The notes beneath the pieces were generated by a model. It saw only the letters and a list, made by a program, of their open reading frames with translations, had not been told where the DNA came from and did not search any database. 64,000 nt of DNA from an uncultured Verrucomicrobiota bacterium (lineage in GTDB: Bacteria; Verrucomicrobiota; Kiritimatiellia; JAAZAB01), in the NCBI GenBank assembly GCA_964486075.1, contig CAZALU010000002.1, forward strand, positions 1,013 through 65,012. Direction: 5' to 3'. Of this stretch, positions 8,272-52,240 are shown in pieces. Position numbers and translations under genes: made by a program. Position 1 is the first letter of the stretch; every line of letters begins with the position of its first letter.

Positions 8272-8658
8272 TCAGGTGACGGGCGCGTCATCTTCCTTTG
8301 GCGCTGGATTGTCGGTTTCCAATTTGGAAAGCAAATTCAGTACCCGGTCACCTTCTTCCAGCGAGGTGTCCAGATTGAAAGTCAGGCGGGGCGTGTATTT
8401 AAGGACAAGATTGGCATTGATATGTTCCTGTATTTCGGTGCGGTGCCGACCCAGCAACGTCAGCATGCGCGGACGTTCTGCATGATGATCGCGGATCGAG
8501 ACATACACTCGCGCTTCCCTCAAATCCTTGCTGGCCGCGACCCGGGTGATGGTCACGGCGGACAGATCAAACCGGTTTTCGTGCATGATCCGGAACAGGA
8601 CTCCGCCGATTTCGCGTTTTAGTAGCTCATTGACCCTGGTTAAACGATCGACACTCAT
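8272..8658 (-). CDS. rbfA: ribosome-binding factor A
   Basis: 128 aa; RVNELLKREIGGVL...ITRVAASKDLREARVYV is RbfA-like. Located between infB and truB. Confidence 0.9.
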   Translation of the reverse strand: MSVDRLTRVNELLKREIGGVLFRIMHENRFDLSAVTITRVAASKDLREARVYVSIRDHHAERPRMLTLLGRHRTEIQEHINANLVLKYTPRLTFNLDTSLEEGDRVLNLLSKLETDNPAPKEDDAPVT

Positions 8659-8679
8659 GGGAAAAATAGGGGAAAGAGG

Positions 8680-26715: not shown

Positions 26716-27652
26716 GCAGCAGGCGTTTTTTTTGGTCGGCCCGACGGCGGTTGGTAAAACCGCCGTTGCGCATTGGATTGCCGAAAACCACGCTTGCGAT
26801 ATTCTTTCCGCGGATTCCATGCTGGTATATCGCGGGATGGATATCGGCACCGCTAAGCCCTCGGCCACGGAGCGCGCTCGCTGCAGGTACCGGGGACTGG
26901 ACCTTGTCTCGCCTCACGAGCCTTTCAGCGCCGGGGATTACCGGGCGGCGGCGCTGGCAGCGATCCGCGCAACGGACGCCGCGGGCCGCAGGCTGATCGT
27001 GACCGGAGGAACAGGCCTGTATATCAAGAGCCTGACGGATGGACTGGCGGACAGACCTCCGCGCAATGAAGCCATCCGGCGTCAAGCTGCGAGTCTGCTG
27101 GCAGAGCAGGGAATCAGGGCCTTGCAGGAATGGCTTGCCCGCCTGGATTCGGGCCGCCTGCAAGCGCTTGCCGATCCTCAGAATCCGCGCCGCCTGACCC
27201 GGGCGATCGAGCTGGCCTCGGCGGGAAAATCGACGCCGGACAAGACCTGGGAGAAGCTCCCGGACAGTCCGCGCATTCCGGGCTTGTTGCGACACCTTGA
27301 CGCGCTTTATGTGCTCATTGAACAACGGGTTGAAAGAATGTATGCCGACGGACTGCTGGAGGAAGTGCGAGGCCTGGTGGCGCAGGGATTGGCCTTGGCA
27401 CCGACCGCCTGCCAGGCCATCGGGTATGCCGAGGCCATCAAGGTCCTTGACGGGCGCTTGACACGTGCGCAGGCCATTACCGCCACTGTAATCCGCACCC
27501 GCCATCTGGCCAAACGCCAGCTAACCTGGTTTCGTCACCAAGCCAACGTGGACTGGCTGGAAATCGATGCGAAGCTGCCGGTGCCCGATTGCGCGCGCCG
27601 GGTTATGGAGTATTGGCAGACCCATGGCCCGACTCCGATTGCCGGGATATGA
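26669..27652 (+). CDS. miaA: tRNA dimethylallyltransferase
   Basis: P-loop FFLVGPTAVGKTAVA, DSMLVYRGMDIGTAKP and LIVTGGTGLYIKSL. The probable start is MRAPHHK at ~26696. Overlaps the lspA 3' end. Confidence 0.9.
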   Translation: MRGKRRSKSMRAPHHKQQAFFLVGPTAVGKTAVAHWIAENHACDILSADSMLVYRGMDIGTAKPSATERARCRYRGLDLVSPHEPFSAGDYRAAALAAIRATDAAGRRLIVTGGTGLYIKSLTDGLADRPPRNEAIRRQAASLLAEQGIRALQEWLARLDSGRLQALADPQNPRRLTRAIELASAGKSTPDKTWEKLPDSPRIPGLLRHLDALYVLIEQRVERMYADGLLEEVRGLVAQGLALAPTACQAIGYAEAIKVLDGRLTRAQAITATVIRTRHLAKRQLTWFRHQANVDWLEIDAKLPVPDCARRVMEYWQTHGPTPIAGI

Positions 27653-27661
27653 AGTGGTAAA

Positions 27662-28429
27662 ATGAAAACCCCAAATTCACCCAGCCAAAAAAACTCGCCC
27701 TTCGTTCCCGGCGAGCCGGTGAGTTACCGGGTGCTCGACCTGCCGGAGCAGCTGAGGCCTAGAGAACTTATGGACCGGTTTGGCGTGGAAAAGTTGCAGG
27801 ATGACACCCTCCTGGCCATTATTCTGCGGACTGGCGTGCCCGGTGTCAATGTGATGGAATTGGCGCGTCAGCTTTTGAAACAATATGGCTCACTGTCGCT
27901 CCTGGCCCGGGCTTCGGTCTCCGACCTGGCCCAGGTGCGTGGCATGGGAAAAATTAAGGCCCAGATTCTGAAATCTGCGCTGGAGTTGGCCAAACGCCTA
28001 ACGCACGAATCGCTTGCGGATCTGCCGATGGTGCGCACGCCCGCGGATGCTGCTGCCCTGTTGCGCGAATCGGCGCGTACGCTGGAAACAGAGGTCTTCT
28101 GGGTTCTGCTCTTGAACGCCAAGAACCGCCTACTGGGCGAGCCGGTGGAGATCACGCGAGGTCTGTTGGACTCCAGTCTGGCCCATCCCCGCGAAATTTT
28201 CAGGGATGCGGTGCGCGCGGCCAGCGCAGCCATCGTCATGGTGCATAATCATCCCTCTGGCGACCCTGCGCCTTCACCAGAGGATATCCGGATCACGAAA
28301 CAACTGGTGGCCTCGGGCCGGATCATTGATATCCGGGTGCTGGACCACGTGATTCTTGGGAAAGCGTCCCCAGCCAGAGAGCAGGACTACATTAGCCTGC
28401 GCGAAGCGGGACTGGTGGAGTTCGGTTAA
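27662..28429 (+). CDS. radC: RadC-like JAB-domain protein (UPF0758)
   Basis: 255 aa; N-terminal helix-hairpin-helix (DLAQVRGMGKIKAQIL) plus the JAMM-like motif HNHPSGDPAPSPEDIRITKQLV. Confidence 0.8.
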   Translation: MKTPNSPSQKNSPFVPGEPVSYRVLDLPEQLRPRELMDRFGVEKLQDDTLLAIILRTGVPGVNVMELARQLLKQYGSLSLLARASVSDLAQVRGMGKIKAQILKSALELAKRLTHESLADLPMVRTPADAAALLRESARTLETEVFWVLLLNAKNRLLGEPVEITRGLLDSSLAHPREIFRDAVRAASAAIVMVHNHPSGDPAPSPEDIRITKQLVASGRIIDIRVLDHVILGKASPAREQDYISLREAGLVEFG

Positions 28430-29562
28430 CCTTGCCAGTTTTCCGCCAGACGGACCATGGTTTCATAGTTGGCCATGGTGCGGGCCGTGATCTCGCGGCC
28501 GTAGGGGCAGGCCGATGGATGCAGAATGAATCCGCGCCCTTCGCCCGCCGTGCCTTCGCGCAGTGCCTTGGCTATCTTTTTCGCGAATACGGGCTCGGGC
28601 AGGTTCTCGATATCGGCTGCTTCAATGTTGCCCATAAGTACAGTGTCGTGGCCGATGAGCGCCTTGATTTCTGTCAATTCCATGTCGCCCTGGGGCGGCG
28701 GCTCCAGCGGGTCCAGTCCGTCCGGCTTCATCTTGGCGATAAGCGGCATGATTCCGCGCAGCCTGCCGTGTGAATGGATGCGGGCATAGCCGCCGTATTG
28801 CCGAATAGTTTGCACCATGTGCCCAGTGTAGCCGACCACGTATTCATCGTACAGGTGCGGCGGCAGAAACGGCGCGCTGCCGTATTCGGAGCCGCAGATC
28901 CGCCACAGGCGTCCAGGGCAGGCCCGCGCTATCTGTTCGCATTGCGGGAAAAGTATGCGCGCGCAGCGCTGCAGAAGACGATGAAACAATTCCGGCTCGG
29001 TCATGGCGGCGACCGTATAATCTTCCATCGAAAACAGCGAGGCGGCCCCGCAGAGCGGGTCGCTTAATTCAATGCTCACGATGCCGGCGTCGCCGAGGGT
29101 CTTTTCCTCGGCGAGGATGCCGGAGACATCCACCGTGCCGAGGGCGGGTTCCGGCAGCTTGAGGTAGGCTTCGATATCCTCGGTTGTTTTGAGGAAATGC
29201 TCAAGCGTCCAGATCGTCTGCACGTTTTTGCTCTGGCTGGTGTGCGCGGTCAGGGCCCGTCCCGGCGCCCGGATTGTCGTGCGGGTGAAACGCGTATCGC
29301 CTTCGCGGCGGCTCTCCCGGGTAATGAGCTGTCCCAGTCCGTTGTCCGTTCCGCCCCGCCACTCTGCTCCGACCATACGGATGAGGTCCGTTTTTGCGTG
29401 CGCCAGCCGGACCAGCGGGCGCCAGGAAGGATCGTTCCAGACCGTGAACTCGTCACTGTCGCGGTCCATCTTCCATCCGCCGACCTCGTAGAACGAGACC
29501 GCCGGGCGGTCCACGGGTTTGCCCTGCAGTGTGGCCATCAATCGCTCACGGCGTGTCATCAT
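28426..29562 (-). CDS. uroporphyrinogen decarboxylase (URO-D)-like superfamily protein, paralog 1 (MtaA/CmuA-like fold)
   Basis: 378 aa. N-terminal RERLMATLQGKPVDRPAV matches the URO-D-like signature (…R.L.A..G..vDR.P…). It is translationally overlapped (ATGA) with the upstream cupin gene. Confidence 0.7.
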   Translation of the reverse strand: MMTRRERLMATLQGKPVDRPAVSFYEVGGWKMDRDSDEFTVWNDPSWRPLVRLAHAKTDLIRMVGAEWRGGTDNGLGQLITRESRREGDTRFTRTTIRAPGRALTAHTSQSKNVQTIWTLEHFLKTTEDIEAYLKLPEPALGTVDVSGILAEEKTLGDAGIVSIELSDPLCGAASLFSMEDYTVAAMTEPELFHRLLQRCARILFPQCEQIARACPGRLWRICGSEYGSAPFLPPHLYDEYVVGYTGHMVQTIRQYGGYARIHSHGRLRGIMPLIAKMKPDGLDPLEPPPQGDMELTEIKALIGHDTVLMGNIEAADIENLPEPVFAKKIAKALREGTAGEGRGFILHPSACPYGREITARTMANYETMVRLAENWQG

Positions 29563-29927
29563 GATTTTGAATCCCTATGAGCCGCCCGGGGTGAAAACGC
29601 GGGCAGGCAGACGGCGATGTATTCGGCGCCACCTTTGTGGGGCGTGCTATAGCGGACCCACTCTCCGCGGTGCGCGATGATCGCCTGGCCGGCGCGGACG
29701 TCAATCGTTTTCGTTCGGGTCGTTACCCGCACAACTCCGCGCAGGACGACGGTATATTCGTCGAACGTGGGGGTCTGGCCCGGCTCGCGCCAGCCTGGCG
29801 GGCCTTTCATCCGGGCGATGCTGACGGCCCGCGTCCCGGAGCTGACCCGCCCGATGAATTCTGCGATGTGCTTGGGCTTGTTGCCAGTGGCCTGAAGAAC
29901 AACTGGTGATTTGATAAGTTTTGGCAT
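29559..29927 (-). CDS. cupin domain protein
   Basis: 122 aa, small beta-barrel with a Gly-rich cupin-2-like motif arrangement (…GEWVRYSTPHKGGAEYIAVC…). Confidence 0.65.
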   Translation of the reverse strand: MPKLIKSPVVLQATGNKPKHIAEFIGRVSSGTRAVSIARMKGPPGWREPGQTPTFDEYTVVLRGVVRVTTRTKTIDVRAGQAIIAHRGEWVRYSTPHKGGAEYIAVCLPAFSPRAAHRDSKS

Positions 29928-29946
29928 GGACTATTCCTCAGTAGCT

Positions 29947-30100
29947 GTGAAACAATTTCCAATACAAAGAGCGGACGCGACGGAGCGCGTCCCTCCATTT
30001 TGCTAGCATATTCGCATTCTTTTATTCATGGAGGGACACGTTTTATCGTGTCCGCCCGATGTTTTCAAGTTTTCACAGTTATTGGGGAGACAGCAAGATC
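29947..30100. other. nested cluster of three hairpins bounded by an 8-bp inverted repeat (CTGTGAAA…TTTCACAG)
   Basis: GGACGCG-ACGGA-GCGCGTCC; TCCCTCCAT-N30-ATGGAGGGA; GGACACG-TTTTAT-CGTGTCC. All were read directly from the sequence, in the gap between the ICMT-like and cupin genes. Confidence 0.5.
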
Positions 30101-30267
30101 ATGCCTGTAGTCGCCCCGCCATGGCCCCTCGTAGCTTCCTAGCGAAGGCGGCTCAGTCGGGGGCGCGCATTTGGTCTCCTGACACGGCGGCAGAGCGCCG
30201 TGGCTATAACCCAATAATTGACGTATTATTCTTTGGCCGTGTTTATACTATACAGCATTGTCAGATT

Positions 30268-30762
30268 CTAATCCTGATTGTTCATACCATCGCGTGAGCA
30301 CATAGGGGCAAACCTTCCGGTCCTTGCCGCGTAGGCGCGGTAGGCGTCTTGAAATTTAGCGAGCATCATTTGTTCTTCACGTCTGACCAGCAGATGCCAG
30401 ACGGGATGCAGGAGGAGCGCTGCGGCCAGGACGATCCAGGAGTTGAAATAGAGCGCCGCAGCCGGAAAGATAAAGCTAATCCAGGCGGCGTACATGGGGT
30501 GACGGAACCAGCGGAACGGACCTCGGGTGCAGAGTTCATCTTTGGCCCACCAGTTGCGCATCGTCCAGATGCTTCTCGCAAAAACCATCAGGCCCATGCT
30601 GGCCAGCGCGCCGCCGGCGATTTTGAGCAATGCCGGATTATCCATGATAGCGGCATGTCCCAGCCTGTGATCTGCCCAGGTGGCGGCCATTAGCACGCCC
30701 AGGCTGATTGCCGCGCCCAGCGGGCCGATGCCGAATAATTTTTGCAGTCCGCCAATGGACAT
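30268..30762 (-). CDS. isoprenylcysteine carboxyl methyltransferase (ICMT/PEMT)-family membrane methyltransferase
   Basis: 164 aa, 4-5 TM, with C-terminal RGPFRWFRHPMYAAW matching the ICMT/phospholipid-methyltransferase SAM-binding motif (RHPxY). Confidence 0.75.
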   Translation of the reverse strand: MSIGGLQKLFGIGPLGAAISLGVLMAATWADHRLGHAAIMDNPALLKIAGGALASMGLMVFARSIWTMRNWWAKDELCTRGPFRWFRHPMYAAWISFIFPAAALYFNSWIVLAAALLLHPVWHLLVRREEQMMLAKFQDAYRAYAARTGRFAPMCSRDGMNNQD

Positions 30763-30912
30763 TAAGTGCCTTTGTAATTCAGATTGCCTGAGTCTCGATC
30801 CGTGTTCATTCGCGCCATCTGCGGTTAAGCCCGTGCTGCTCTGTCCTGGCGAAATAAATTTGCATTAATTTTTAGAGCGGTTTTGAACAGAAACTAACGG
30901 GGCCCAATTGCA

Positions 30913-31923
30913 TCACCGGTACCGATCTACGGATTCGATCAGGGCTTTGACGTTTTCAAACGGCGCATCATTCTCGATCTCGATGTAGAAAATTCCGCCG
31001 CCCCGCAGCCGCTGAAAGCGCTCGGCGTACTCCCGGATTTTCGCATCGATGGCAGACGGAGTGCCCCTCGGGACCAGGCGCTGGCGGTCGGGATGGATGA
31101 AAATGGCGATTTTATGCTCTTGGCACTTGCGGAGATATGAGGGGTCGGCCTCGAACAGCCCGATTTGTGGCCATAGTCCTTTTATTCCGAGATCGAGCAA
31201 GTCGTCGAAGATCTCGCCCAGGAACCCGCAGCAGTGGAAGAAAACAATGCGGTTGGCCTGCCGGATCGGCGCCATGAGTCTGTCATAGCGTGGTTTGAAC
31301 ACCTCGCGAAACAGGGCCGGCGCTATGATCGGCGCGCTCTGCGTTCCCCAATCGTCGCCGAAGCTGATGACGTCCGCCCCTGCCGCGACCAGGGATGCAA
31401 TCGCCTCCAGCCAGTAATCCGTCAGGCGATCCAGGAACGCCAAGAGATCGGGATCCCGTTCCTGGATGTCCATCAGGACTTCGTCCATCGGCCGGAGCGC
31501 GCAGAGTCGCTCGAAGATTGAAATTCCGCCCGCAAAAACCAGGAAGTTTTTGCTTTGTCCGGCGATCCAGGCCGGATCGGGTGCGGGGTGGGGCGGGAAC
31601 CGATAGTGGGCACCATCTTTCCAACTGGCAAGCGGGTAATGACGCGGGTGACCCCAAACGCCGAATATCCTATGCTCCCATTCCGTTCCCCATGCGTCGG
31701 TCCTGATCTCGTGATACTCGCCGGCTTGGTTGACGGTTCCGGGCGGCGGTGCCAGGATGGCATCGAAGCTAATCGGGTTGTCCGGCGGGTAACTCCGGAA
31801 TAGGTCGAGCAGCTTCCGGCCGTGAACGTGCAGGCCCGCCGGCGAGGGATGATAGACGACCGGTATGCGGTCGGGGTCGCCGTAGTCGAACGCGGCCTGC
31901 ATGCGTTGGCGGGAGGGCATCAT
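30913..31923 (-). CDS. URO-D-like superfamily protein, paralog 2
   Basis: N-terminal RQRMQAAFDYGDPDRIPVV URO-D-like signature. The probable start is MMPSRQ at 31923; the ORF-track N-terminus extending to 32034 is Gly/Pro-rich junk. The start lies 2 nt after the stop of the upstream 664-aa gene. Confidence 0.7.
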   Translation of the reverse strand: MMPSRQRMQAAFDYGDPDRIPVVYHPSPAGLHVHGRKLLDLFRSYPPDNPISFDAILAPPPGTVNQAGEYHEIRTDAWGTEWEHRIFGVWGHPRHYPLASWKDGAHYRFPPHPAPDPAWIAGQSKNFLVFAGGISIFERLCALRPMDEVLMDIQERDPDLLAFLDRLTDYWLEAIASLVAAGADVISFGDDWGTQSAPIIAPALFREVFKPRYDRLMAPIRQANRIVFFHCCGFLGEIFDDLLDLGIKGLWPQIGLFEADPSYLRKCQEHKIAIFIHPDRQRLVPRGTPSAIDAKIREYAERFQRLRGGGIFYIEIENDAPFENVKALIESVDRYR

Positions 31924-31925
31924 GT

Positions 31926-33920
31926 CTATCCCAGCAGCACCACAAGTTCCCACTGGTGCATGGGGTGGCCCAAGCGGATGACATCCGCGTCCACTACGAC
32001 TGCCAGGCGTTTCCCCGCCGGCGTAAGATGCCATGCTTCGACAATTGGCGGCATGCCGCGCGGACGTTGAATGCGGAACGTGTCCACCTCATCCGGGCCC
32101 GCGTTCCACACCACTCCGCGCCATGTTCCGCGGTCCTTGAGAAACTGCGGGACAAGCCAGGCGCCGCCATCCACCCGGCCCGTGCCCTCGCCATCGGCGA
32201 GCCAGTCCACGACGCGCTTGAGCTGGGTGGAGCGGTGGATGTCCATCATGGGCACGCTGTCCACGCCGGCGTCCCAGGGCACGACCGCGGTGCGGCCGCC
32301 CAGTTCATTCTTGAAAATGAATGCGCCGTGCCCGACGACTTCTTGTAACGGATTGCGTAAGTCGCTGATTACAGCCGCGCCGGGCATGAGTTCCGCCTGT
32401 AACATCCGACGGGTGTGACTTGCCCCGTTGATGGATATTTGAGCGCCGACCCGCAAGGCAAATTTTGCGTCTCGGCACTCCTCCATCGAATAAAGCCTTT
32501 CTTTCTGAGTCACAAACCGGGCCGATTGCGCGCCGATCCACTTGCCGAGCCCGCGCTCGATCAGGATTGACGCGGCGCCGCCGTCCAACAGCAAGCCCGC
32601 CGCCAGACATTTTTTCAGCGTGGCGTCATCAAAACTCCAGGCGATCGGTCCGGCCAGGGAGTTAACGTGCTGCTGCGGTCGGGCCGAGAAGGCGATGCCT
32701 GCCGTCCCCAGCCAGTTCGACCACCCGCGGCTTGCACATTGCAAGTCAGCCCAGGAACGCCCCTCCTCGAGGCGGATTAAGCGTCCCATGTCTTGTGACC
32801 ACGGGACGCCGACTCCGACGCTTTTCAGGGTCATGGGAAAGTGGTCGGCCAGCCAGTCCATGTTGGGCCGGACCTTTTCCAGGAACGCCGTCCGTTCCGG
32901 CTCGTCGTCGGGCCGGTTTCCCATAAAATCGTAAAGGCTGATATTGAGATTGGTGGATCCGAGGATATGCGCCACGGCCATTTGCGCGAAGGTCTGGCGA
33001 AAGGACTTGTTCCATTTTCCATAGGAAAAGTTTTCGATTTCCGGTCCGCTTTCGAGCACAGAGGGTTGAATTGAGCGATTCTGATCGAGGCTTGCAATGC
33101 CATGCACCAACTGGTGGCCGGTCCAGTCCGAATAACCCCAGAAGGAAGGCCGATGAATCGGGGGCTGTTCGCCGCCAAAAACCTGCCACCATTTTTCCCA
33201 CTGGCGCCCCTCGGCGGCATGGGATTCCATGGCGCTGGACATCAGGCCCATTCGCGTGCCGCCCTCCGCCAGGATCTGCCGACACTCGTCAAGAAACTGG
33301 AGTATCGTTTCCTGCCACATGTCCATCCAGATCGTCCGCCACGGGTGCGGCGCGCCCGGCGCCAGGCAGGCGCGGACGATCTCCTCCCGGCTGGCGCTGG
33401 CGCCCGCCCGTTGGTTGAACTCCGCCACATGCAGCGGGCAGAAGCATCCGCCCCATTGAAGCGTTCCGTGATTATGGTAGCGGATGTCGTCGTCGATCCA
33501 GACCACGCGGAAGCCTTCCGGGGCGTACATGCGAAGGGTTTCAAAATAGTAGGCGCGCCAATTCGGGTCGAGGATGCAGACCACCGCATCGGCCCGAGTC
33601 CCGACCGGGTCCACCATGGTCCGCCAGTCCTGGCCCGGCTTGAGTTTGCGCCCGCGATCACAGTGTAGCATGCTGTGCCAGGGATTCAGGCTCACAGCCA
33701 CGCCTGTCTTCCGCAACGCCTCGCGGTAGGGGCGGGAGCGATCGATCCACTGTTGCAACCGATCGAGGGTGTCATGCCCGTTGTTCTGTTCTTCGGCGAA
33801 GTAGAAGAACATGACTTCGTCCACCGGCGCTTCGCGTACCAGCCGGAGTAGTTGCTCCGTGATCTCCGCCGGGTCCTGGTGCGGACCGAATTGCATGCGC
33901 AGGCTGAAATGGCTTGGCAT
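31926..33920 (-). CDS. large hypothetical protein (664 aa), function unknown; translationally coupled to URO-D-like paralog 2
   Basis: Long ORF with no stop and coding-like composition. No transmembrane segments or signal peptide are evident. No motif could be assigned with confidence; it possibly has a glycoside-hydrolase-like TIM-barrel fold. Confidence 0.55.
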   Translation of the reverse strand: MPSHFSLRMQFGPHQDPAEITEQLLRLVREAPVDEVMFFYFAEEQNNGHDTLDRLQQWIDRSRPYREALRKTGVAVSLNPWHSMLHCDRGRKLKPGQDWRTMVDPVGTRADAVVCILDPNWRAYYFETLRMYAPEGFRVVWIDDDIRYHNHGTLQWGGCFCPLHVAEFNQRAGASASREEIVRACLAPGAPHPWRTIWMDMWQETILQFLDECRQILAEGGTRMGLMSSAMESHAAEGRQWEKWWQVFGGEQPPIHRPSFWGYSDWTGHQLVHGIASLDQNRSIQPSVLESGPEIENFSYGKWNKSFRQTFAQMAVAHILGSTNLNISLYDFMGNRPDDEPERTAFLEKVRPNMDWLADHFPMTLKSVGVGVPWSQDMGRLIRLEEGRSWADLQCASRGWSNWLGTAGIAFSARPQQHVNSLAGPIAWSFDDATLKKCLAAGLLLDGGAASILIERGLGKWIGAQSARFVTQKERLYSMEECRDAKFALRVGAQISINGASHTRRMLQAELMPGAAVISDLRNPLQEVVGHGAFIFKNELGGRTAVVPWDAGVDSVPMMDIHRSTQLKRVVDWLADGEGTGRVDGGAWLVPQFLKDRGTWRGVVWNAGPDEVDTFRIQRPRGMPPIVEAWHLTPAGKRLAVVVDADVIRLGHPMHQWELVVLLG

Positions 33921-34359
33921 TGGAAAGATCCTTGGTGATTAAGCATCTCGCTTTGTGTGGACCAATTTTTAAAAAAAGTGCAGTTCTGTAGCCGCGACCG
34001 TTGGTCACGGTCCTGAGCAACGCAGGCCGACATCATCTGTCGGCTACAGGAAAAGTTGCTCTGCGTTTACGGGGCCTCCAGTATGCGTATGGGATATATT
34101 GACATCTATGTCGTCAGGAATATCAATCGAACGCCAACAATGTATCCGAGCGGCTGGCAGTGTCAATTCGTAAAGAGCATTTGCCAGCCATTTTAATTAT
34201 GGCCTTTAGACCCGAATTACAGAGCATTCACGGGCGAATCCCCAAGGCTTAGGTATGAATCTTCTGTTTTTAGGTTGAATGCCGCTGGCGCATGCTCTAA
34301 AACCATAGCCAGTTTGCATGCGATAGGGCCAATAGCAATATAACGTCAAAGGAATCCAC

Positions 34360-35172
34360 ATGACCACCATTCATCCCACGGCCATCGTGGCCGCCGGTGC
34401 GCAGATCGGGGCCAATGTGACGATCGGACCTTATGCGGTGATTGAGGATAAAGTCTGCATCGGCGCGGACACGGTCCTCGGGCCGCATGTCACCCTGTGC
34501 CGCTTTACGACTATCGGCGAATCCTGCGCCATTCACGCCAATGCCGTCCTGGGTGATTGGCCCCAGGATACGGCCTTCGATCCGAAAGAGGAAAGTTACC
34601 TGCGGGTTGGCGCGCATTGCATGATCCGGGAGGGCGTAACTATGCACCGGGGAACCAAGCCCGGCACCGCCACTGAGGTGGGGGATCACTGTTTCCTCAT
34701 GGTCAACAGCCACCTGGGGCATAATGTCAAGCTGGGCGCATCCGTGATCATCGCCAATGGCGCCTTGCTGGCGGGCTATGTCGAGGTGGGGGACGGTGCC
34801 TTTATCAGTGGCAACTGCCTCCTGCACCAGTTCACCCGGGTGGGACGGTTGGCCATTCTGGCCGGAGGGACCGCGATCAACAAGGATGTGCCGCCCTTCT
34901 GTAAAACAAAAGGACTGGCACCGAATACCGTGCTGGGCTTGAACGTGATCGGTTTGAAGCGCGCCGGGATGGGGCCCGAGGACCGGTTGGCTATCAAGCG
35001 GGCCTTCACGATCCTTTACCGGTCCGGCCTGAACGTTTCCCAGGCCGTGGCACGGATGAAGAAGGAATATCCGTCCGGATTGGCCGGCGAGTTTTGCGCC
35101 TTTATCGAAGCTTCCAAGCGCGGCATCTGCCGCTGTCGCGTTCTGGCCGGCAAAGATGCCGAGGATGAATGA
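34360..35172 (+). CDS. lpxA: acyl-ACP--UDP-N-acetylglucosamine O-acyltransferase
   Basis: 270 aa; left-handed beta-helix hexapeptide repeats throughout (IHPTAIV, IGANVTIGPYAVI, IGADTVLGPHVTL...) and an LpxA C-terminal helical domain. Confidence 0.9.
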   Translation: MTTIHPTAIVAAGAQIGANVTIGPYAVIEDKVCIGADTVLGPHVTLCRFTTIGESCAIHANAVLGDWPQDTAFDPKEESYLRVGAHCMIREGVTMHRGTKPGTATEVGDHCFLMVNSHLGHNVKLGASVIIANGALLAGYVEVGDGAFISGNCLLHQFTRVGRLAILAGGTAINKDVPPFCKTKGLAPNTVLGLNVIGLKRAGMGPEDRLAIKRAFTILYRSGLNVSQAVARMKKEYPSGLAGEFCAFIEASKRGICRCRVLAGKDAEDE

Positions 35173-35237
35173 AGCTGGCCGCGGGGGCTTTGCTATTTAA
35201 GGTTAAGTTCGCTGGCTTATAAATATACCAACGATCC

Positions 35238-36278
35238 ATGATACCGCGCGAACGAGTTTTAGCTGCCGTTGCTCACCGGCGCACCGACCGCGCCCCGGCT
35301 GATTACGGCGCCCACCCGGAGGTGACTGAACGGTTGATGGCCCGCTTGGGCGTCAAGGATTACGAATCCTTGCTTCAGGCCCTGGGCGTGGACATGCGCC
35401 GGATCGGGTTTAGATATGATCAGCCGGAAACTGGTCCGGACAGCGGCGGGTACCTGCGCAATATGTGGGGAGTCCGGTACCGCGACAAGGCACCCGGCGA
35501 TGGTCGCCCAAATATCATTTTTCCCTTTACCGAAGACACCACCGTTGAGGATGTGCATCGCCATGCCTGGCCGGATCCGGCCCGCCTCGATTATTCGGGA
35601 ATCCGGGAACAATGCGTAAAAGCATACGGAACCTATGCCACGTTTGGCGCGCCCTGGAGCCCGTTCTTCCATGAAATTGGCTGGATAATTGGCCAGGAAA
35701 ACTTTTTTATATGGATGGCGTCGCAGCCGGAACTGGTGCAGGCGATCATCGAGCATGTGGTGGATTACGAGGTGGAGGCGACCCGCCGCTTCCTGGAAGC
35801 GGCGGACGGCATGATCGACATCGTGTTTTTCGGTAACGACTTCGGGACCCAGCGGGGTCTTTTCATTTCCCCGGCCATGTGGCGGCAATTTATCCGTTGT
35901 CCGTTAAAACGATATTACGATGTCTCGCACGCCTTCGGATGCCGCGTCATGCAGCATTCCTGCGGCGCGATCCGTGCTATCATTCCCTGGCTCATGGAGG
36001 ACGGAGTGGATATCCTCGACCCCGTTCAATCGGCGGCGGCCGGCATGGATCTGCCGGGGCTGGTCCGGGACTTCGGAGACCGGCTGGCGTTCCACGGCGG
36101 GGTGGATACGCAGGGAGTCCTGCCGTTCGGCACGGTGCGCGAGGTCCGCGGCCAGGTCCGGTCCTATCTTGATCTCACACGCGATCAGGGAGGCTATATT
36201 CTTTGCGGAAGCCAGGACCTGATCGAAGACATCCCACTCGACAACGTTCTGGCCATGTACGACGAAAACACACGCTAA
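35238..36278 (+). CDS. URO-D-like superfamily protein, paralog 3
   Basis: 346 aa; N-terminal ERVLAAVAHRRTDRAPAD signature and a C-terminal HSCGAIRAIIPWLMEDGVDILDPV motif typical of URO-D/MtaA-like enzymes. Confidence 0.7.
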   Translation: MIPRERVLAAVAHRRTDRAPADYGAHPEVTERLMARLGVKDYESLLQALGVDMRRIGFRYDQPETGPDSGGYLRNMWGVRYRDKAPGDGRPNIIFPFTEDTTVEDVHRHAWPDPARLDYSGIREQCVKAYGTYATFGAPWSPFFHEIGWIIGQENFFIWMASQPELVQAIIEHVVDYEVEATRRFLEAADGMIDIVFFGNDFGTQRGLFISPAMWRQFIRCPLKRYYDVSHAFGCRVMQHSCGAIRAIIPWLMEDGVDILDPVQSAAAGMDLPGLVRDFGDRLAFHGGVDTQGVLPFGTVREVRGQVRSYLDLTRDQGGYILCGSQDLIEDIPLDNVLAMYDENTR

Positions 36279-36295
36279 CGGGGGAGGGTTTTTTT

Positions 36296-37555
36296 ATGAC
36301 ATTTTCGAGTCAGGATCGACGGATTCTGCGCGATTTGGCGACGCGGGTCGCGGAGGTTGCCGACCACCCCAGGATGCCCGTGCGGCGGCGGCGCTGGATC
36401 GCGCATAACAGCTTGCGCTCCACATATCCAATGATGCTGGTGTTTCCGGAAGGATCGTGGGGGGAACTTCTGCCGGAGACCTGCTTGCAATGCGTCGATC
36501 CCCGGGCGCGGGAAATTGAATATGCGTTTCGCATACGCCTTTATACCTTCGAACATTTTCAGGACGATACGGTGATCGAAAAGGAATGGGTTGTTCAACG
36601 ACGGATCCGCTACACGGGGTGGGGGCTGGAGCCCCGCCGCGTGCCGAGCCCGGCAGTCCGGGGCGCTTGGCATTTCGATCCCGTCATTCGCGTTCCGGCC
36701 GACCTCAAAAAACTAAAATACCCAGAAGTCATCCTGGACGAAGCGGAATCGCGCCGCGATCTGATGTCCGTGCAGGATCTTTTTGGGGATATTTTGGCTG
36801 TACGCAGCGTGGGCCTTCAGCATTTGTCCTACCATTTGATGGCTGAATACACGGCCCTGCGGGGATTGGAAGAGGTCATGCTGGACATGTATTCCGAACC
36901 TGGCATGCTGCATGACGCCATGGCGTTCCTGGAGGAAGGTCACCGGCGCTTGTTGCGGCAGTATATCGAACTGGGATTGCTCTCGTTCAACAACAATAAC
37001 GCCTACCAGAATTCGGGCGGCAACGGCTATACCGACGAATTGCCACTTCCAGACGCCGATCCGGACCGTGTTCGGCCTTGCGATATGTGGGCCAGTGCTG
37101 AAGCCCAGGAAATGGCCCAGGTCAGTCCGGAGCATCACGCCGAATTCATACTGGCCTATGAAAAACGTTTGCTGGCGCCTTTCGGACTTACCGGCTATGG
37201 CTGTTGCGAGGATCTAACACGGAAACTGGACATCGTTTTTGGCATTCCCCGCATAAGGCGGATATCTATTTCCCCTTGGTCGGATGTGGCCCGTTGCGCG
37301 GCCAAACTAAAAGGTGGCTATATCTTTTCCTGGAAGCCGAATCCGGCGCACCTGGTCGGTGAGTTCAATGCTCAAGCCGTCCGGTCCTATATCCGGCAAA
37401 CGCTGGATGCGACCCGTGCCTGTGGATCTGTCCTGGAAATGGTTCTCAAGGACACGCACACCTGCGAACAACATCCGGAGCGGTTCGATCACTGGACCCG
37501 CATCGGGCGCGAATTGATCCAGGAAATGTGGGGCGAACTGTCGGCTGGCGGGTAA
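36296..37555 (+). CDS. URO-D-like superfamily protein, paralog 4 (divergent N-terminus)
   Basis: The C-terminal GYGCCEDLTRKLDIVFGIPRIRRISISPWSD...GGYIFSWKPNP parallels the HxCG...GVDIL...G.dP pattern of URO-D-like proteins. The start was chosen at MTFSSQ, which follows a GGAGGG Shine-Dalgarno sequence; the ORF-track extension to 36203 overlaps paralog 3. Confidence 0.55.
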   Translation: MTFSSQDRRILRDLATRVAEVADHPRMPVRRRRWIAHNSLRSTYPMMLVFPEGSWGELLPETCLQCVDPRAREIEYAFRIRLYTFEHFQDDTVIEKEWVVQRRIRYTGWGLEPRRVPSPAVRGAWHFDPVIRVPADLKKLKYPEVILDEAESRRDLMSVQDLFGDILAVRSVGLQHLSYHLMAEYTALRGLEEVMLDMYSEPGMLHDAMAFLEEGHRRLLRQYIELGLLSFNNNNAYQNSGGNGYTDELPLPDADPDRVRPCDMWASAEAQEMAQVSPEHHAEFILAYEKRLLAPFGLTGYGCCEDLTRKLDIVFGIPRIRRISISPWSDVARCAAKLKGGYIFSWKPNPAHLVGEFNAQAVRSYIRQTLDATRACGSVLEMVLKDTHTCEQHPERFDHWTRIGRELIQEMWGELSAGG

Positions 37556-37598
37556 CGCCCGCCCGCTGGACTGCGGGACAGGGCTCGGATTTTCGTCA

Positions 37599-37627
37599 TT
37601 GACCTGTTTTGCCTGTCCAGCTATGCT
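37599..37627 (+). promoter_or_regulatory. candidate sigma70 promoter TTGACC-N17-TATGCT
   Basis: Pattern match ~35 nt upstream of the MMFITHF start of the PpiD-like gene. Confidence 0.3.
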
Positions 37628-37661
37628 CTTGCCCCGTAACTTTCTTGAAAGGTATCGAGCC

Positions 37662-39380
37662 ATGATGTTTATAACGCATTTTAATAAACTGATCCGAAAT
37701 AAGATCCTGTGGACTATTTTTGCGGCCATCATCATATGTTCCTTTGTGCTGTGGACAACCCAGACCGGCGGGTCCCAATCGGAGGCGTCGCTCAATCGCA
37801 CCGGCAAACTCGATGGAAAAATTGTGCCGGAACAGGAATTTCAATCCGCTTACTTCAATTCTATGCTCTCCATTTCGCTCATGTTCGGGAGGCCGATAAA
37901 GATCACTGCGCGGGTCAACGAGGAGTTGCGTGGCATGGCTTGGCGGCGGCTGGTGTCGTTGCGGGCGGCCCAGTCCATGGCTATATCCGTTACCCCTGAT
38001 GAAGTGGTCGCTGCGATCCAGCAACAGCCTTATTTTTTGGATAAGGGTCAATTCCAGCAGGACCGTTACAACATGTTCGTGGGCCGGTTTCTCGCCAGCC
38101 TCCAGACGAGCGAGGCGCAGTTTGAGGAATATATACGCCAGGAATTGATTTTGAATAAAACCAAGCATCTCCTGGCCCAGGGCGCCTGGGTGGCGCCGTT
38201 GGAGGTGGAGCAGGTGTTCGACCAGTTGTACGACGCTTTTGTCGTCAGCTATGTCTTCCTGGCGCAGGACGATGTCGCGCCCTTGGTCAAAGTCAGCGAG
38301 GATCAGGCCCAGGCCTACTTCGAAGGCCACCGGGAATCCTTTAAGATTCCGGAAAAAATGCGCGTAAAATGGGTCGCCTTTCCCATCGAGCTTTTTCTTG
38401 ATGAAGGCAATTTGGATGAGCAAACCCTGCGTTTTTATTATGACGAATACATTGAGGATTTCACCGTGCGTGACTCCAACGACCAGTTGCTCGCCAAACC
38501 TTTCGAGGTTGTGGAGGATGATCTGCGGTCAAAGATGGCTTGGGAGGCCGCGCTGGCCCAGGCGGGGGACCGGGCCTCGGATTTTGAGGTGGCACTCGCC
38601 CCGGACCGGCAGGGCAAGGCTCCGAGTTTCGAGGATGCAGCCCGAGCCGGCGGTTTATGCGTGGCGACATCGTCCTATTTTGCCGTCTCTCAGACGATTC
38701 CCGGGCTGGAGGACAACTTGGAATTCAGCAAGGCGGCTTTCGAACTGCGCCAAACTCCGGACGATTATTTCAGCCGCGTGCTTACGGGATCAAACGCTTA
38801 TTATCTCCTGGCGCTCGACAACCGGGTCGATGCCCGCATACCAGAATATGCAGAAGTTCGCAGCGCTGTTATCGAGGCGGCACAAGCGCAAGCCATAACT
38901 GAAAAATTGGAGCAGTTGGCCCGACTCTATTACGAGCTGGCGCTTGACGGCGTGGAGCAAGGTCTGTCTTTTACGCAAAGTTTGCAAGGAACCGGGTTGG
39001 AAGTAGAAACCACGGAACCGTTCTCGGTCAAGGAAGGATTCGAAAATACAGAGCTGGAATATTTCAATGCGCTGGTCAAGGAGGTGTTGACGCATAACAG
39101 CGGAGAGATGACCAAGCTTATTCCGGTCAAGAACGGCTATGTTTTTGGCCGCGTAGATTCGCGCCAGCCTGCCAGCCGCACCCTGTTGGAGTCGGCCCGC
39201 GCCGACCTGGTCCGCTATATCCGGCGCAGTCGGGAAGGCCTGGTTTTCAACGAATGGGAGGGATACCTGCTTGCTTCCGCCAAGTTTGAGGATCTTTTGC
39301 CCAAGCAGAGCGCTGCGTCGGAATTTGCGGACGATGATGCATTCCCCGAAGATGAGTTCCCGGACGGGGAAGATGAATAA
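37662..39380 (+). CDS. periplasmic chaperone of the SurA/PpiD family (N-terminal membrane anchor plus SurA-N-like domain)
   Basis: N-terminal TM helix ILWTIFAAIIICSFVLW followed by a long helical SurA-N-like region. No clear parvulin PPIase motif was recognised. The start was moved to MMFITHF (37662). Confidence 0.6.
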   Translation: MMFITHFNKLIRNKILWTIFAAIIICSFVLWTTQTGGSQSEASLNRTGKLDGKIVPEQEFQSAYFNSMLSISLMFGRPIKITARVNEELRGMAWRRLVSLRAAQSMAISVTPDEVVAAIQQQPYFLDKGQFQQDRYNMFVGRFLASLQTSEAQFEEYIRQELILNKTKHLLAQGAWVAPLEVEQVFDQLYDAFVVSYVFLAQDDVAPLVKVSEDQAQAYFEGHRESFKIPEKMRVKWVAFPIELFLDEGNLDEQTLRFYYDEYIEDFTVRDSNDQLLAKPFEVVEDDLRSKMAWEAALAQAGDRASDFEVALAPDRQGKAPSFEDAARAGGLCVATSSYFAVSQTIPGLEDNLEFSKAAFELRQTPDDYFSRVLTGSNAYYLLALDNRVDARIPEYAEVRSAVIEAAQAQAITEKLEQLARLYYELALDGVEQGLSFTQSLQGTGLEVETTEPFSVKEGFENTELEYFNALVKEVLTHNSGEMTKLIPVKNGYVFGRVDSRQPASRTLLESARADLVRYIRRSREGLVFNEWEGYLLASAKFEDLLPKQSAASEFADDDAFPEDEFPDGEDE

Positions 39381-39382
39381 TG

Positions 39383-40108
39383 CTAGCCGCTAGAAGCGGC
39401 GCCCCCGCCGCTTTCTTCTCTTGGCAAGTTCCTGAACTTCCTGATCATCCTGAAAAAACGGATTGTGTCGCGCAGCGGGCGGATCTTACTGATTTCATCC
39501 CGGTAAATGACTGTGATGGGCACTGAGCCCATGCGGACCCCGCGTGCCGCCAGGTGCAGGAGAATTTCCGACTCGGCCGCATATCCCGAGGATACCGGTG
39601 CTTCCGATGGGAGCACAGCGCAGCGATATAGACGGAACCCGCATTGTGTGTCGGGGACAGATTGCTTCATTTCCCGGCTGAGGTATCCGCTCATGAAACG
39701 GTTAGTCCAGCGCCGGATGAGTGGCATACTTCGCGGATTGCCCATGCGATTACCAACGAGGACCGGGAGCCCACTGCCGGCATAAATATCCAGAAAACGT
39801 GGAATATCAGAAGGCGCGTGCTGGCCATCGGCGTCCATGGTTAAGAGATGATCGAAACCATGTTCCCTGGCGTATTTAAAGCCTGTGAACAGGGCCACCC
39901 CTTTGCCGAGGTTGTGAGCGTGGCGCAGGACAATGGCGCCCGCCGCCGCCGCTTCCTGCGCCGTTTGATCCGGCGAGCCGTCGTCGATGACGATCACCGG
40001 ACGGATTATGCTGAGCACACTGCGGATCACTTCCCCGATCCGGCCCTGCTCCAGGTAGGCCGGCATGATCACGCAACCGCTTGTTGTTGATGTGTCAGAT
40101 CGATTCAT
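39383..40108 (-). CDS. family 2 glycosyltransferase (Dpm1/polyprenyl-phosphate sugar synthase-like)
   Basis: VIMPAYLEQGRIGEV...VIDDGSPDQT...TMDADGQH are GT2 DxD and associated motifs. The start was placed at MNRSDTS (40108); the long ORF-track N-terminal extension is Cys/Arg-rich junk that overlaps the next gene. Confidence 0.75.
   Translation of the reverse strand: MNRSDTSTTSGCVIMPAYLEQGRIGEVIRSVLSIIRPVIVIDDGSPDQTAQEAAAAGAIVLRHAHNLGKGVALFTGFKYAREHGFDHLLTMDADGQHAPSDIPRFLDIYAGSGLPVLVGNRMGNPRSMPLIRRWTNRFMSGYLSREMKQSVPDTQCGFRLYRCAVLPSEAPVSSGYAAESEILLHLAARGVRMGSVPITVIYRDEISKIRPLRDTIRFFRMIRKFRNLPREESGGGAASSG
39393..39422 (+). terminator. Rho-independent terminator (GAAGCGGCG-CCCC-CGCCGCTT + TCTTCTCTT)
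   Basis: A 9-10-bp GC-rich stem and a U-rich tail begin 13 nt after the stop of the PpiD-like gene. It shares an 18-mer (gctagaagcggcgccccc) with a degenerate copy at 63832. Confidence 0.55.
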
Positions 40109-40976
40109 GGTTCCTGTTGGGTTGCCAGAATTCGTCGAACATAAACCATTGCAGCGGGTGACGGGCGATTTCCATTTCCATTGCATCCCGAATCTGACGG
40201 CGAAGGTCAAGCACCGAGGTTTTGCCTGAGGGCACGATCGGCCGGTGCATACGGAGCAGGAAGGTGTCATCCGGCTGGCGCACCAGGAATGTCGGGACAA
40301 TTGGCGCACCGGTCTTGGCCGCGATGCGCGCGGGCCCGCTGGGCAAGCGCGCCGGAAGTCCGAAAAAAAGGAGCGGTTCATCCTGGTGAGTCGTGTAATC
40401 GCGGTCGGCCAGCATGGCTACGTATTCCCGATTCTTCAAGGCCTTGAGCACTCCGCGGGCGGCCTGGCCGAAGGGGATCAGGCGCAGGCCGCGCCTGGTG
40501 CGGTGCTTCTCGAACAGGTCGTTGACCTTGCCCGCGCGCTGGGGATAGAAAACAGCGCACAGGCGGCGGCCCAGCGCGCTGAGCACAGCCCCGCCCAGTT
40601 CCCAGTTGCCGAGGTGGGCTGTAACCAGGATTACGCCCCGTTCCAGGTGTTCGGCTTCCTCCAGGTAATCCAAGTGTTCCAGGCTCACCAGCCGGTTCAC
40701 TGCCTTGAGGTCGAAGCGCGAGAATTTAAAAAAGTCCACCAGGTATTTGCCGAAGTTCTGGAAGTTCTTGCGGGCCATCTGGCGCAGAGTGTCTTCCGAT
40801 GCCTGGACGCCTTGTGCTGCCAGGATCTGGCGGAAGTTTGACATCACTGCCTGCCGGCCCCTTTGATCCGTTGCGAAAAAACGGTCGGCTATGCGCAGTC
40901 CAACCCAGTAGGCGAAACGACGCGGCAGACCACGGCTAATGAGTTGCGCCAGCTGGTATGATATGTAGGGGGTCAT
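40095..40976 (-). CDS. lipid A biosynthesis late (Kdo-lipid IVA) acyltransferase family protein (LpxL/HtrB-like)
   Basis: 293 aa; an N-terminal hydrophobic anchor and the catalytic HLGNWE (HX4E) motif of the LpxL/LABLAT family. Confidence 0.75.
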   Translation of the reverse strand: MTPYISYQLAQLISRGLPRRFAYWVGLRIADRFFATDQRGRQAVMSNFRQILAAQGVQASEDTLRQMARKNFQNFGKYLVDFFKFSRFDLKAVNRLVSLEHLDYLEEAEHLERGVILVTAHLGNWELGGAVLSALGRRLCAVFYPQRAGKVNDLFEKHRTRRGLRLIPFGQAARGVLKALKNREYVAMLADRDYTTHQDEPLLFFGLPARLPSGPARIAAKTGAPIVPTFLVRQPDDTFLLRMHRPIVPSGKTSVLDLRRQIRDAMEMEIARHPLQWFMFDEFWQPNRNHESI

Positions 40977-50742: not shown

Positions 50743-52240
50743 TTATTTCCACCCCTTACACGTTACCAGCAAGGTCTTCACCTCAAAGGGACGGAAGGTC
50801 AGCTTAATCTTGCCGCCCGCAAGTTGCACCTTGTTGCCCGTCGGGTTTTCCAGAAAATTAACTTCCCGGGCCGCGCTGATGCCTTGGCCTAGTTCTATAA
50901 TTGCCGCGCACGACCGGGCCTCTGGCAGGAACAGGCGCAGCACAATGCCGGTCGAATGCTCGGCGCGGCGCATGGCTGTGCAGAGAACCGAAGCGCTCCC
51001 TCGAATTACCAGCTGGGGCGCTTGGCTCAGCCGCGCACCGTCCGTAAGAACCGGCACCATGGAACGATTGAACGCCATGCCTTTGCGCACCAAGCTGGCG
51101 TTGGATGCTTTCGTTCCATGCGGTTCGAACGCGAACCGTATGACGTGTTTCCCGTTGTCCGTCTCCGGGTCGGGGGCATACGGATTTCGCAATAGCGTGA
51201 TGCGCAGCCGGGGACCCAGGGCATCCGTTCCATATTTCGAATCGTTGTATAAAGTGAATCCGAATTCCTGCCCCGATACGTCCGCCCATTTCTGAGTCGG
51301 CATTTCCAGGCCATTGGCCGGGATCTCGTCCACCGAGAACGGACCTTCGGGCCTCGTCAATGACTTGGAATACGTTTAACGCCAGCTCGGCGTGTGTGCT
51401 TGGCCCGTGAGTGAGCGGACGCGGGGCACCGTAGGCGACAAGTTCACGCCGTGAGCGTTTTGTCCCAGTAGGAGCCGATGGCGCCCGACGGCGTATGGAG
51501 CTTGACGATGGCTTGCGGGCTCTCCACCTCGAAGTAATCGCCCTTTTCCGTTACGGCGATCCTCGGGAACTCCCGCGCTTGGGGCAGTTCGAACAGGATA
51601 CGATAGGTCCTTTGCGAGAAGGCCGGAACCTTTGTTGCTATGAAGACAAAATTTTTATCCAATCTTTGGACCGGGATGAGTTGTCCATCCGAGTTCTGCA
51701 AGGCAACGGTATGGCGTGGCAGAGCGGCGCGCATCGGCTCGGTTCGCTCGAACCCAAGCGGGTTAAGCAAGGTCAAGTAATGCCCTTTGCGATCGGCCTT
51801 AACCAGCACGGCAACGGACGCGCTGATCACCCGGGCGGCCGTTGCCCGTGACGACTCGGCCCGCCGGTGCGCGTCGCTGTAACTGTCATGAACGGCGGCG
51901 CCATCGAAATGTCGTGAAATTGATTGAACAGCACTGGAATCCACACAGCGTGGAGTGCCGCGGTCCTATCCAGACCGGCTAATGCCGAGAGCGATTCTGC
52001 GGCCAGCAGATCGGCTTCGCACCTCCGATTGTCGCGTTTCAAGGCGGCGTGGGTGGTAAAACATCCTTCAAAATGGAGTAACATTGTCCCTTGGCTCAGG
52101 GTAAGTGTCGGGCGCCTAAAGAATCTTGGCTTTGCGGCCAAGGTGTTTAGTTGACCAGTCGGCGGCATACAACATGTGGCGGGCAATGGATTCACCATCG
52201 GCCATATTGAGATCGCCCTCGACCCAGGTGCCGGCCGCAT
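50743..52240 (-). pseudogene. alpha-mannosidase (GH38) remnant: 5'-truncated and multiply frameshifted
   Basis: Three minus-strand ORF fragments carry GH38 regions. Fragment 51827-52240 has the NQFHD motif (WIPVLFNQFHDI). Fragments 51444-51944 and 50743-51360 have the central and C-terminal domains (LYNDSKYGTDALGPRLRITLLRNPYAPDPETDNGKHVIRF). Frame changes occur between fragments. The ~300-aa catalytic N-terminal region is missing because the intact GH4 gene starts at 52633. Confidence 0.65.

Follow-up and report, generated by a model that had tools for sequence, protein, structure and literature searches.

Gene content and layout of the locus

The window analysed here is a stretch of 64,000 nucleotides from an uncultured Verrucomicrobiota bacterium, and the subject of this work is a group of eight neighbouring genes at positions 28426–37555, four of which (P1–P4) encode divergent proteins assigned to the uroporphyrinogen decarboxylase superfamily (URO-D or UroD). 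The other four encode a 664-aa protein (U664) whose predicted fold resembles that of glycoside hydrolase (GH) family 42, a probable cupin, a membrane methyltransferase and LpxA. All eight open reading frames (ORFs) were present at the coordinates given in a preliminary description of this DNA, and P3 and P4 came out the same (346 and 419 aa) when genes were called independently on a Logan contig of this sequence. The genes and signals are listed below in order of position.

28426–29562, minus strand: P1, 378 aa, URO-D superfamily (PF01208, 46.5 bits)
29559–29927, minus strand: probable small cupin, 122 aa (Cupin_2, 24.7 bits)
29961–30065: inverted-repeat/hairpin region between the ICMT-family and cupin genes (consensus match only)
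30268–30762, minus strand: ICMT/PEMT-family membrane methyltransferase, 164 aa (PEMT, 40.8 bits; ICMT, 37.9 bits)
30913–31923, minus strand: P2, 336 aa, URO-D superfamily (PF01208, 49.7 bits), with an H-C-C-G motif
31926–33920, minus strand: U664, 664 aa, predicted GH42-like three-domain protein, glycosidase-like, no Pfam family
34139–34166, minus strand: sigma-70-like promoter match TTGACA-16-TACATT (consensus match only)
34360–35172, plus strand: lpxA, 270 aa (TIGR01852, 296 bits versus a cutoff of 231)
35238–36278, plus strand: P3, 346 aa, URO-D superfamily (PF01208, 63.0 bits)
36296–37555, plus strand: P4, 419 aa, predicted URO-D fold, invisible to Pfam, with an invariant Y-G-C303-C304-E motif

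The tight spacing reported earlier was borne out by the coordinates. The stop codon of the cupin gene and the start codon of P1 share the four nucleotides ATGA (29559–29562), the stop codon of U664 occupies 31926–31928 with the ATG of P2 at 31923, 2 nt further on, and lpxA, P3 and P4 all lie on the plus strand, separated by gaps of 65 and 17 nt, respectively. The promoter match lies upstream of U664, inside the divergent lpxA/U664 intergenic region. Between the ICMT-family and cupin genes there is a 38-nt imperfect inverted repeat that includes a GC-rich hairpin (29973–29992) with a terminator-like score on both strands; because of this hairpin the minus-strand block is probably transcribed in two parts. 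An N-terminal hydrophobic signal-like segment is lacking in all six soluble proteins.

The lpxA assignment proved genuine, and the methyltransferase passed the gathering scores of both Pfam families (25 for PEMT and 24 for ICMT), whilst the more specific models were missed (isoprenylcysteine methyltransferase, 60.7 versus 160 bits; LmtA, 16.9 versus 325 bits). For the cupin, the ORF itself stood and four other cupin-type families matched weakly, but the Cupin_2 score fell short of the gathering score of 27.2 bits.

Four URO-D-like families and the U664 protein

Three of the four paralogs (P1, P2 and P3) scored above the gathering score of PF01208 (23.9 bits), with matches that started at profile positions 138–162 of 346 and thus covered the C-terminal part of the model only. 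Profile–profile comparison with hhalign linked the P2 and P3 families over their full length (probability 97 %, E 9.6e-11) and the P1 and P3 families over the C-terminal half (probability 93.8 %, E 1.7e-7).

P4 gave no Pfam match, no NCBIfam match and no BLASTP similarity to P1–P3. An exhaustive profile search among 50 %-identity representatives recovered 2897 relatives of P4 at E ≤ 1e-3, 698 of them at E ≤ 1e-30. When 43 relatives (30–50 % identical) were aligned, the resulting profile matched the P3 family over 257 columns (E 1.7e-5), and weak PF01208 matches were found in 15 of the 43; a narrower P4 alignment compared with the P3 profile was insignificant, and significance was reached only after these more distant relatives had been added. 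An iterated search started from P3 also reached P4 without collecting unrelated proteins, and the AlphaFold2 model of P4 was a UroD-type (β/α)8 barrel with a mean confidence (pLDDT) of 92. On profile and model evidence, P4 is assigned to the URO-D superfamily at the superfamily level only. The earlier count of four URO-D-like paralogs within 9 kb was therefore right, with the restriction that one of them has no Pfam match and can be placed no more closely than this. No further URO-D-like ORF was found in the ~55 kb that make up the rest of the window. A U664 homolog (locus L009; L numbers denote homologous loci in other genomes and contigs) that had appeared as a URO-D relative in a lenient jackhmmer run is treated as profile drift, and was absent from a stricter rerun.

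The mutual divergence that had been noted was confirmed: pairwise identity among the paralogs was 0–27 % by BLASTP. Each of the proteins has its own set of relatives, with identities across phyla of 68–80 % for P3 (2989 matches), 63–73 % for P4, 53–84 % for U664 and 46–86 % for P1. Because identity between the paralogs is so low and orthologs of each one are spread over many phyla, P1–P4 are best described from their sequences as four old, separately conserved families that recur in many phyla and not as recent duplicates. A recent local gene-family expansion is rejected on the same grounds, and the idea of a lineage-specific expansion found no support. The motifs said to be common to all four paralogs were likewise not shared: HxCG...GVDIL is found in P3 only, P2 reads HCCG...GIKGL, P1 reads HSHG...DGLDPL, and P4 has neither the N-terminal DRxP nor HxCG.

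None of the four proteins matched a hemE model in NCBIfam, and the only NCBIfam models that P1–P3 matched were of the MtaA/CmuA type. Scores against the MtaA/CmuA model TIGR01463 (curated cutoff 235.4 bits) were 33.4 for P1, 47.7 for P2 and 53.5 for P3, all far below the cutoff, and P4 did not match at all. Thus, P1–P3 belong to PF01208 but fall within neither the HemE nor the MtaA/CmuA models, in agreement with the earlier suggestion that they are neither HemE nor classical MtaA. Amongst solved structures, the nearest and only sequence relative of P2 was the methyltransferase MtaA (4ay7, E 1.5e-6); PDB searches with single-sequence P1, single-sequence P3 and the P4 profile gave no informative match, and no UroD chain was matched at the sequence level by any of the P1–P4 searches, identity to HemE/UroD structures being 12–14 %. 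At their N-termini, P1–P3 carry the DRxP of MtaA-like proteins and not the arginine motif typical of HemE. No hem family was detected in the 38 window ORFs scanned with Pfam or in the annotated homolog loci, with the exception of one P3 homolog, which has CbiX and TP_methylase genes at a distance of 7 kb. Judged by these comparisons, P1–P4 appear to lie on the MtaA/MetE-like, metal-site side of the UroD superfamily and not with HemE.

Residues resembling metal ligands were found at the MtaA zinc position in all four families. In P2, FFHCCG aligned with VLHICG of MtaA (4ay7), placing H-C-C at the H-x-C position, with no counterpart of C323 of P3. In the P3 family alignment H240-S-C242 was invariant, and the profile set HSCG on the HICG of MtaA. 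The hallmark of P1 is R-x-H263-x-H265-G-R in place of the H-x-C of MtaA; H263 and H265 align with H240 and C242 of P3, and H263, H265, E226, E314 and R356 were invariant in an alignment of 73 P1 sequences. In P4, YGCCE (C303-C304) was invariant across the P4 superfamily, with C304 aligned to C242 of P3. The literature searched gave no confirmation of residue numbers for the zinc ligands of MtaA. In the UroD superfamily, a zinc site activates the substrate heteroatom, and the S-methyltransferases carry His-Cys-Cys ligands whilst one or both Cys are replaced in the O-methyltransferases (PMC10418091). Because of this published role and the ligand-like residues at the MtaA zinc position, the four paralogs look like metal-site enzymes with four different putative ligand sets, and the differences between these sets suggest that the substrates differ and that the proteins are not successive steps of a single pathway.

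No Pfam family was matched by 25 members of the U664 family even at E ≤ 10, including the Glyco_hydro_42 and 42M models, and no sequence relative was found in the PDB. The structure prediction that had been proposed for this protein returned a confident model (pLDDT 90, predicted TM-score 0.91) with a TIM barrel, a middle α/β domain and a C-terminal β-sandwich, that is, a GH42-like fold in which the three-domain architecture of GH42 was found complete. Invariant features of the family were WIDDDIR at the end of barrel strand 4, WGGCFCPLH, E294 on strand 7 and C115/C159/C161/H164, together with many invariant His and Arg residues. D144/D145 at the end of strand 4 and E294 are candidate catalytic residues only. 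The spacing of C115/C159/C161/H164 is like that of a cysteine cluster which we take to bind structural zinc in the Thermus GH42 enzyme, a resemblance for which the literature gave no confirmation. On the strength of the model, U664 is read as an exo-glycosidase-type enzyme that is located in the cytoplasm and belongs to a family other than GH42.

Homologs of U664 with 53–84 % identity were found in Verrucomicrobiota, Chloroflexota, Armatimonadota, Planctomycetota, Hydrogenedentota and Bacillota, and homologs with 45–49 % identity in Streptomyces and Micromonospora; overall, 536 species genomes were matched. The Streptomyces gene lies between GH95, a β-helix/CBM protein and GH101, and on a 1-Mb metagenome contig a U664 homolog has two GH95 genes, GH38 and a URO-D gene around it.

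Gene order and genomic context in relatives

Gene order was compared in a sample of ~175 loci. In the nearest GTDB genome (L004), an uncultured Verrucomicrobiota metagenome-assembled genome in which U664 is 81 % identical, the order is lipA, lpxL-like, GT2, ppiD, lpxA, U664, P2, ICMT, cupin, P1, radC, miaA, lspA, dksA-like and pyk. From lipA to pyk this is identical to the window with one exception: lpxA and ppiD are not separated by P3 and P4. The gap holds instead an unrelated ORF of 219 aa (7909–8568, plus strand) with a signal-peptide-like N-terminus, which may encode a small outer-membrane protein. P3–P4 is thus a two-gene indel in a variable lpxA–ppiD slot, since an unrelated ORF occupies the same gap in the relative.

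Beyond this genome the associations between the eight genes dissolved. A URO-D-like ORF occurred within 10 kb of U664 in ~10 of 83 loci; it was directly adjacent in L001, L004, L005 and L048, where the subfamilies differ. Only L004, L094 and L099, the nearest relatives, have a cupin next to the P1 homolog, and in 80 metagenome loci with P1 homologs (46–86 % identity) it was present only in the two closest, at ≥ 84 % identity, whilst U664, ICMT, lpxA and radC were never seen. The ICMT-family gene was kept only in L004, the adjacency of lpxA and U664 was common only to L004, and that of lpxA, P3 and P4 was not found even there. A conserved U664–P2 or cupin–P1 module held only at ~81 % identity or more. 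A mobile-element origin of the blocks was also considered and rejected, since neither flanking repeats nor a tRNA were found and the base composition shows no clear break. Neighbourhoods that are not conserved in relatives had been named beforehand as a refutation, and for the cluster taken as one unit this is what was observed.

The locus probably does not represent one pathway; the gene order points rather to two independently variable blocks, each with tight internal gene coupling, inside a housekeeping/envelope region. Block A on the minus strand would comprise U664 translationally coupled to the MtaA-like P2, then the ICMT-family protein, the hairpin and the cupin coupled to P1, whereas block B on the plus strand would be the P3–P4 pair inserted between lpxA and ppiD. 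No lpxA or other lpx gene was found beside any other U664, P1, P3 or P4 homolog examined. On these grounds and on the gene order of L004, a lipid A operon was rejected and the suggested lipid A link found no support: lpxA is a positional neighbour and its adjacency is accidental.

The window as a whole is ordinary chromosome, with pnp, ribF, truB, infB, nusA, pyk, lspA, miaA, radC and ppiD-like among its genes, and lpxL-like, GT2, lipA, comEC, gatA/B and secretion ATPases as further genes. Carbohydrate genes are interspersed (GH130, SASA/CBM9 esterase, GH29, GH4 and GH38 fragments), so that the LpxL-like and GT2 genes and the presence of glycoside hydrolases reported earlier were confirmed. 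An ORF at 50743–51360 (minus strand) matched only C-terminal domains of GH38 (Glyco_hydro_38C and 38C2), and the adjoining ORF at 51444–51944 (minus strand) gave no Pfam match; from their sequences the two seem to be remnants of a single GH38 gene that has been frameshifted or has decayed. The longest ORFs of GT2 (39383–40381) and the LpxL-like acyltransferase (40095–40976), both on the minus strand, overlap by ~290 nt. A public gene call gives a shorter GT2 (241 aa) and an overlap of 14 nt with the LpxL-like gene, which suggests a coupled pair.

Homologs elsewhere were found in variable, mostly carbohydrate-related contexts, including GH95, GH38, GH2, GH9, GH4, GH29, sulfatase, GFO/IDH/MocA and xylose-isomerase-like barrels, and the sugar context inferred from the window alone thus extends to carbohydrate-catabolism neighbourhoods in other genomes. 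P3 orthologs occurred alone by GH29, with an AraC regulator plus GFO/IDH/MocA, AP_endonuc_2 and GH10, or with an FGE-sulfatase-domain protein. P4 orthologs were found in GH2-SASA-GH9-P4 rows, with sulfatase and heparinase, with DUF4838/GFO/AP_endonuc_2, or with GH4. A Pfam census of 143 ORFs flanking P1 homologs yielded 95 families, of which the sole recurrent one was the sodium:solute symporter (SSF; 10 ORFs).

No B12-binding family was present in the 38 window ORFs scanned, in ~14 annotated homolog loci or in the 25 families that, out of 95, were hit most often in the P1 census, and no riboswitch, cobalamin riboswitches included, was detected in 27000–39000. The earlier statement that neither a corrinoid partner nor a hem gene lies close by therefore stood.

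Several proteins of these neighbourhoods deserve mention in their own right. In 11 loci a ~700-aa protein with no Pfam family is encoded close to a P1 homolog, usually directly downstream of it and on the other strand (L148 6046–8178, minus strand; L123, L124, L130, L131, L136, L143, L144, L151, L155 and L167), and an SSF symporter and a DUF5107-TPR protein often accompany it. This protein is unrelated to U664. Locus L084 (Armatimonadota) carries two paralogous proteins of 434 and 427 aa (2110–3414 and 6286–7569, minus strand) that are 47 % identical and have no Pfam match. Also in this locus are a P4 ortholog and two URO-D genes; one of the two paralogous proteins ends 10 nt before a URO-D gene, and homologs are present in L047 and L160. 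In L175, 8 kb (2152–10443) contain a P4 ortholog, GH4, two URO-D genes with weak Pfam scores and proteins of 402 and 271 aa with no assigned function, a further case of divergent UroD-like genes grouped with a glycosidase. The 434-, 427- and 402-aa neighbours were tried as P4-like candidates and are not P4-like.

Proposed function and comparison with known systems

The best reading of these comparisons and models is that the locus encodes cytoplasmic metal-dependent TIM-barrel enzymes that would modify imported sugars, alongside an exo-glycosidase. U664 would trim an imported oligosaccharide, and the UroD-like enzymes would use a bound divalent metal, probably zinc, to activate a heteroatom of the sugar derivative, be it released or imported, from which a small substituent would then be removed or transferred with no need for a dedicated co-encoded corrinoid protein. 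An O-methyl group is the leading guess for this substituent, because the closest characterised chemistry in this branch is heteroatom (de)methylation, although (de)alkylation specifically is put forward only tentatively. That symporter genes recur beside P1 homologs suggests a small substrate taken up from outside. Given that no corrinoid partner was found, the enzymes would either use a new partner-independent mechanism, rely on a partner encoded elsewhere, or carry out other chemistry such as decarboxylation. It is a doubtful, more far-reaching proposal that the P1, P3 and P4 families, with thousands of members, form a new class of carbohydrate-active, corrinoid-protein-independent metalloenzymes on the UroD/MtaA barrel, which would remove or transfer small sugar substituents in concert with glycoside hydrolases, acting for example in oxygen-independent removal of O-methyl ethers, with the recurrent URO-D-like/P4 pairs perhaps as two-subunit enzymes and U664 as the founder of a new GH family of GH42 architecture.

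Several observations weigh against the proposed roles or against treating the paralogs as independent. The alignments that place the putative ligands rest on only 10–27 % identity; P1 has no Cys at all, and C323 of P3 is usual but is replaced by T or S in some orthologs. The demethylation guess is weakened by the fact that all characterised methyl-transferring members of the superfamily, except those of the MetE type, depend on a corrinoid protein, and none was found here. Genes for divergent URO-D-like proteins also recur close together, with three in L045, two plus P4 in both L084 and L175, and adjacent pairs in L028, L087, L103 and L160, and many of the ~175 loci sampled were short contigs. 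A P4-type gene lies directly by a URO-D-like gene in the window, L028 and L087, and within 3–6 kb of one in L084 and L175. Some paralogs may therefore cooperate, for example in a P3-type/P4-type pair.

Amongst the alternatives, the one that fares best is that P1–P4 are components of a classical MT1/MT2 corrinoid methyltransferase system which demethylates O-methyl sugars or other methylated compounds, with the corrinoid protein, activase and acceptor encoded elsewhere. This would account for the MtaA/CmuA-type models being the best NCBIfam matches of P1–P3, for MtaA being the nearest solved relative of P2 and for the conserved H-x-C of P2 and P3, and the known superfamily members other than HemE and MetE are indeed corrinoid methyltransferases (PMC10418091). 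It is nevertheless unlikely: the model scores are 33–53 bits against a cutoff of 235, and genuine systems nearly always cluster MT1, the corrinoid protein and MT2, whereas neither a B12-binding family nor a cobalamin riboswitch was detected within the ORFs, loci and interval given above.

A second alternative, that the proteins are true decarboxylases, cofactor-free or metal-assisted, acting on uronates or keto-uronates produced by neighbouring GFO/IDH/MocA oxidoreductases, would fit the recurrence of GFO/IDH/MocA and AP_endonuc_2 genes nearby and the many invariant His and Arg residues of U664, which would suit an acidic substrate. The H-x-H of P1 with its conserved carboxylates also resembles the sites of metal-dependent decarboxylases and hydrolases. 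Set against this are the lack of any sequence match to HemE models or UroD chains, the MtaA-like DRxP N-termini and the dependence of UroD chemistry on a pyrrole ring as electron sink, which sugars do not offer, and the alternative is regarded as quite improbable.

Finally, a single co-functional lipid A/envelope locus, in which the ICMT-like protein would methylate lipid A in the manner of LmtA whilst lipid A precursors would be the substrates of the URO-D-like proteins, is extremely improbable, for although the genes adjoin lpxA, the LpxL-like gene, GT2 and ppiD, block A lies by lpxA in L004 too and there is a weak LmtA match (E 0.004), that match is more than 300 bits short of its cutoff, P3–P4 do not follow lpxA in L004, other U664, P1, P3 and P4 homologs have no lpx neighbours, and U664 has a predicted glycosidase fold and GH neighbours.

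What is new here is a set of abundant uncharacterised enzyme families within the known UroD/MtaA/MetE superfamily, and the apparent cluster around lpxA is a positional accident that should not be passed on in annotation as a sign of shared function. The handling of methylated and otherwise decorated sugars by bacteria is poorly known; the methoxy-sugar route found in the literature is an oxygen-dependent P450 acting on 6-O-methyl-galactose (PMC10033563). Several large and strongly conserved UroD-like families lie in glycan-degradation loci of Planctomycetota, Verrucomicrobiota, Armatimonadota, Chloroflexota and others, and a literature search found no paper on URO-D-like genes in such loci. 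One of them, the P4 family, comprises ~2,900 50 %-identity clusters and is invisible to Pfam, and the U664 family, which lacks a Pfam model and is GH42-like in its predicted fold, is present in at least 536 species, among them culturable members of Streptomyces and Micromonospora. All of these families are concrete targets for enzyme discovery, and U664 is directly testable through its Streptomyces and Micromonospora carriers. For annotation, the lesson is that ‘uroporphyrinogen decarboxylase family protein’ in genomes of this kind says nothing about haem.

Of the known systems, MtaA (TIGR01463; 4ay7) shares with P1–P4 the UroD-type TIM barrel, and the HCCG of P2 aligns on its HICG, as the P3 profile does weakly. 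P1–P4 differ from it in having no corrinoid partner in any locus examined, in lying in glycan-degradation contexts and not in C1 metabolism, and in the replacement of H-x-C by H-x-H in P1 and by C-C in P4; nor are the bacteria concerned known to synthesise coenzyme M (CoM). HemE (EC 4.1.1.37; 4exq, 1j93 and 2eja) is likened to P1–P3 by their matches to PF01208, but these are C-terminal only, identity is 12–14 % and the window holds no hem genes. HemE is also not known to have metal ligands where P1–P4 have putative ones. In its three-domain architecture and cytoplasmic location U664 resembles GH42, a family of β-galactosidases and α-L-arabinopyranosidases with GH164 and GH151 as look-alikes; it differs in that identity is ~10 %, that it fails the GH42 Pfam models and the PDB sequence search, and that the end of strand 4 reads D143-D144-D145 followed by H-N-H, with no obvious N-E acid/base motif. 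The nearest parallel to P1–P4 in kind is the MtaA-like protein (Mlp), defined by > 25 % identity to a characterised CoM methyltransferase and encoded in clusters with corrinoid proteins and genes of sulfur or selenium metabolism (Kountz & Balskus, PMC10418091). Mlps are likewise MtaA homologs of the UroD superfamily from bacteria that are not methanogens, with functions predicted from the composition of the zinc site, whereas the P1–P4 families are more distant, have no corrinoid neighbours and lie among glycoside hydrolases.

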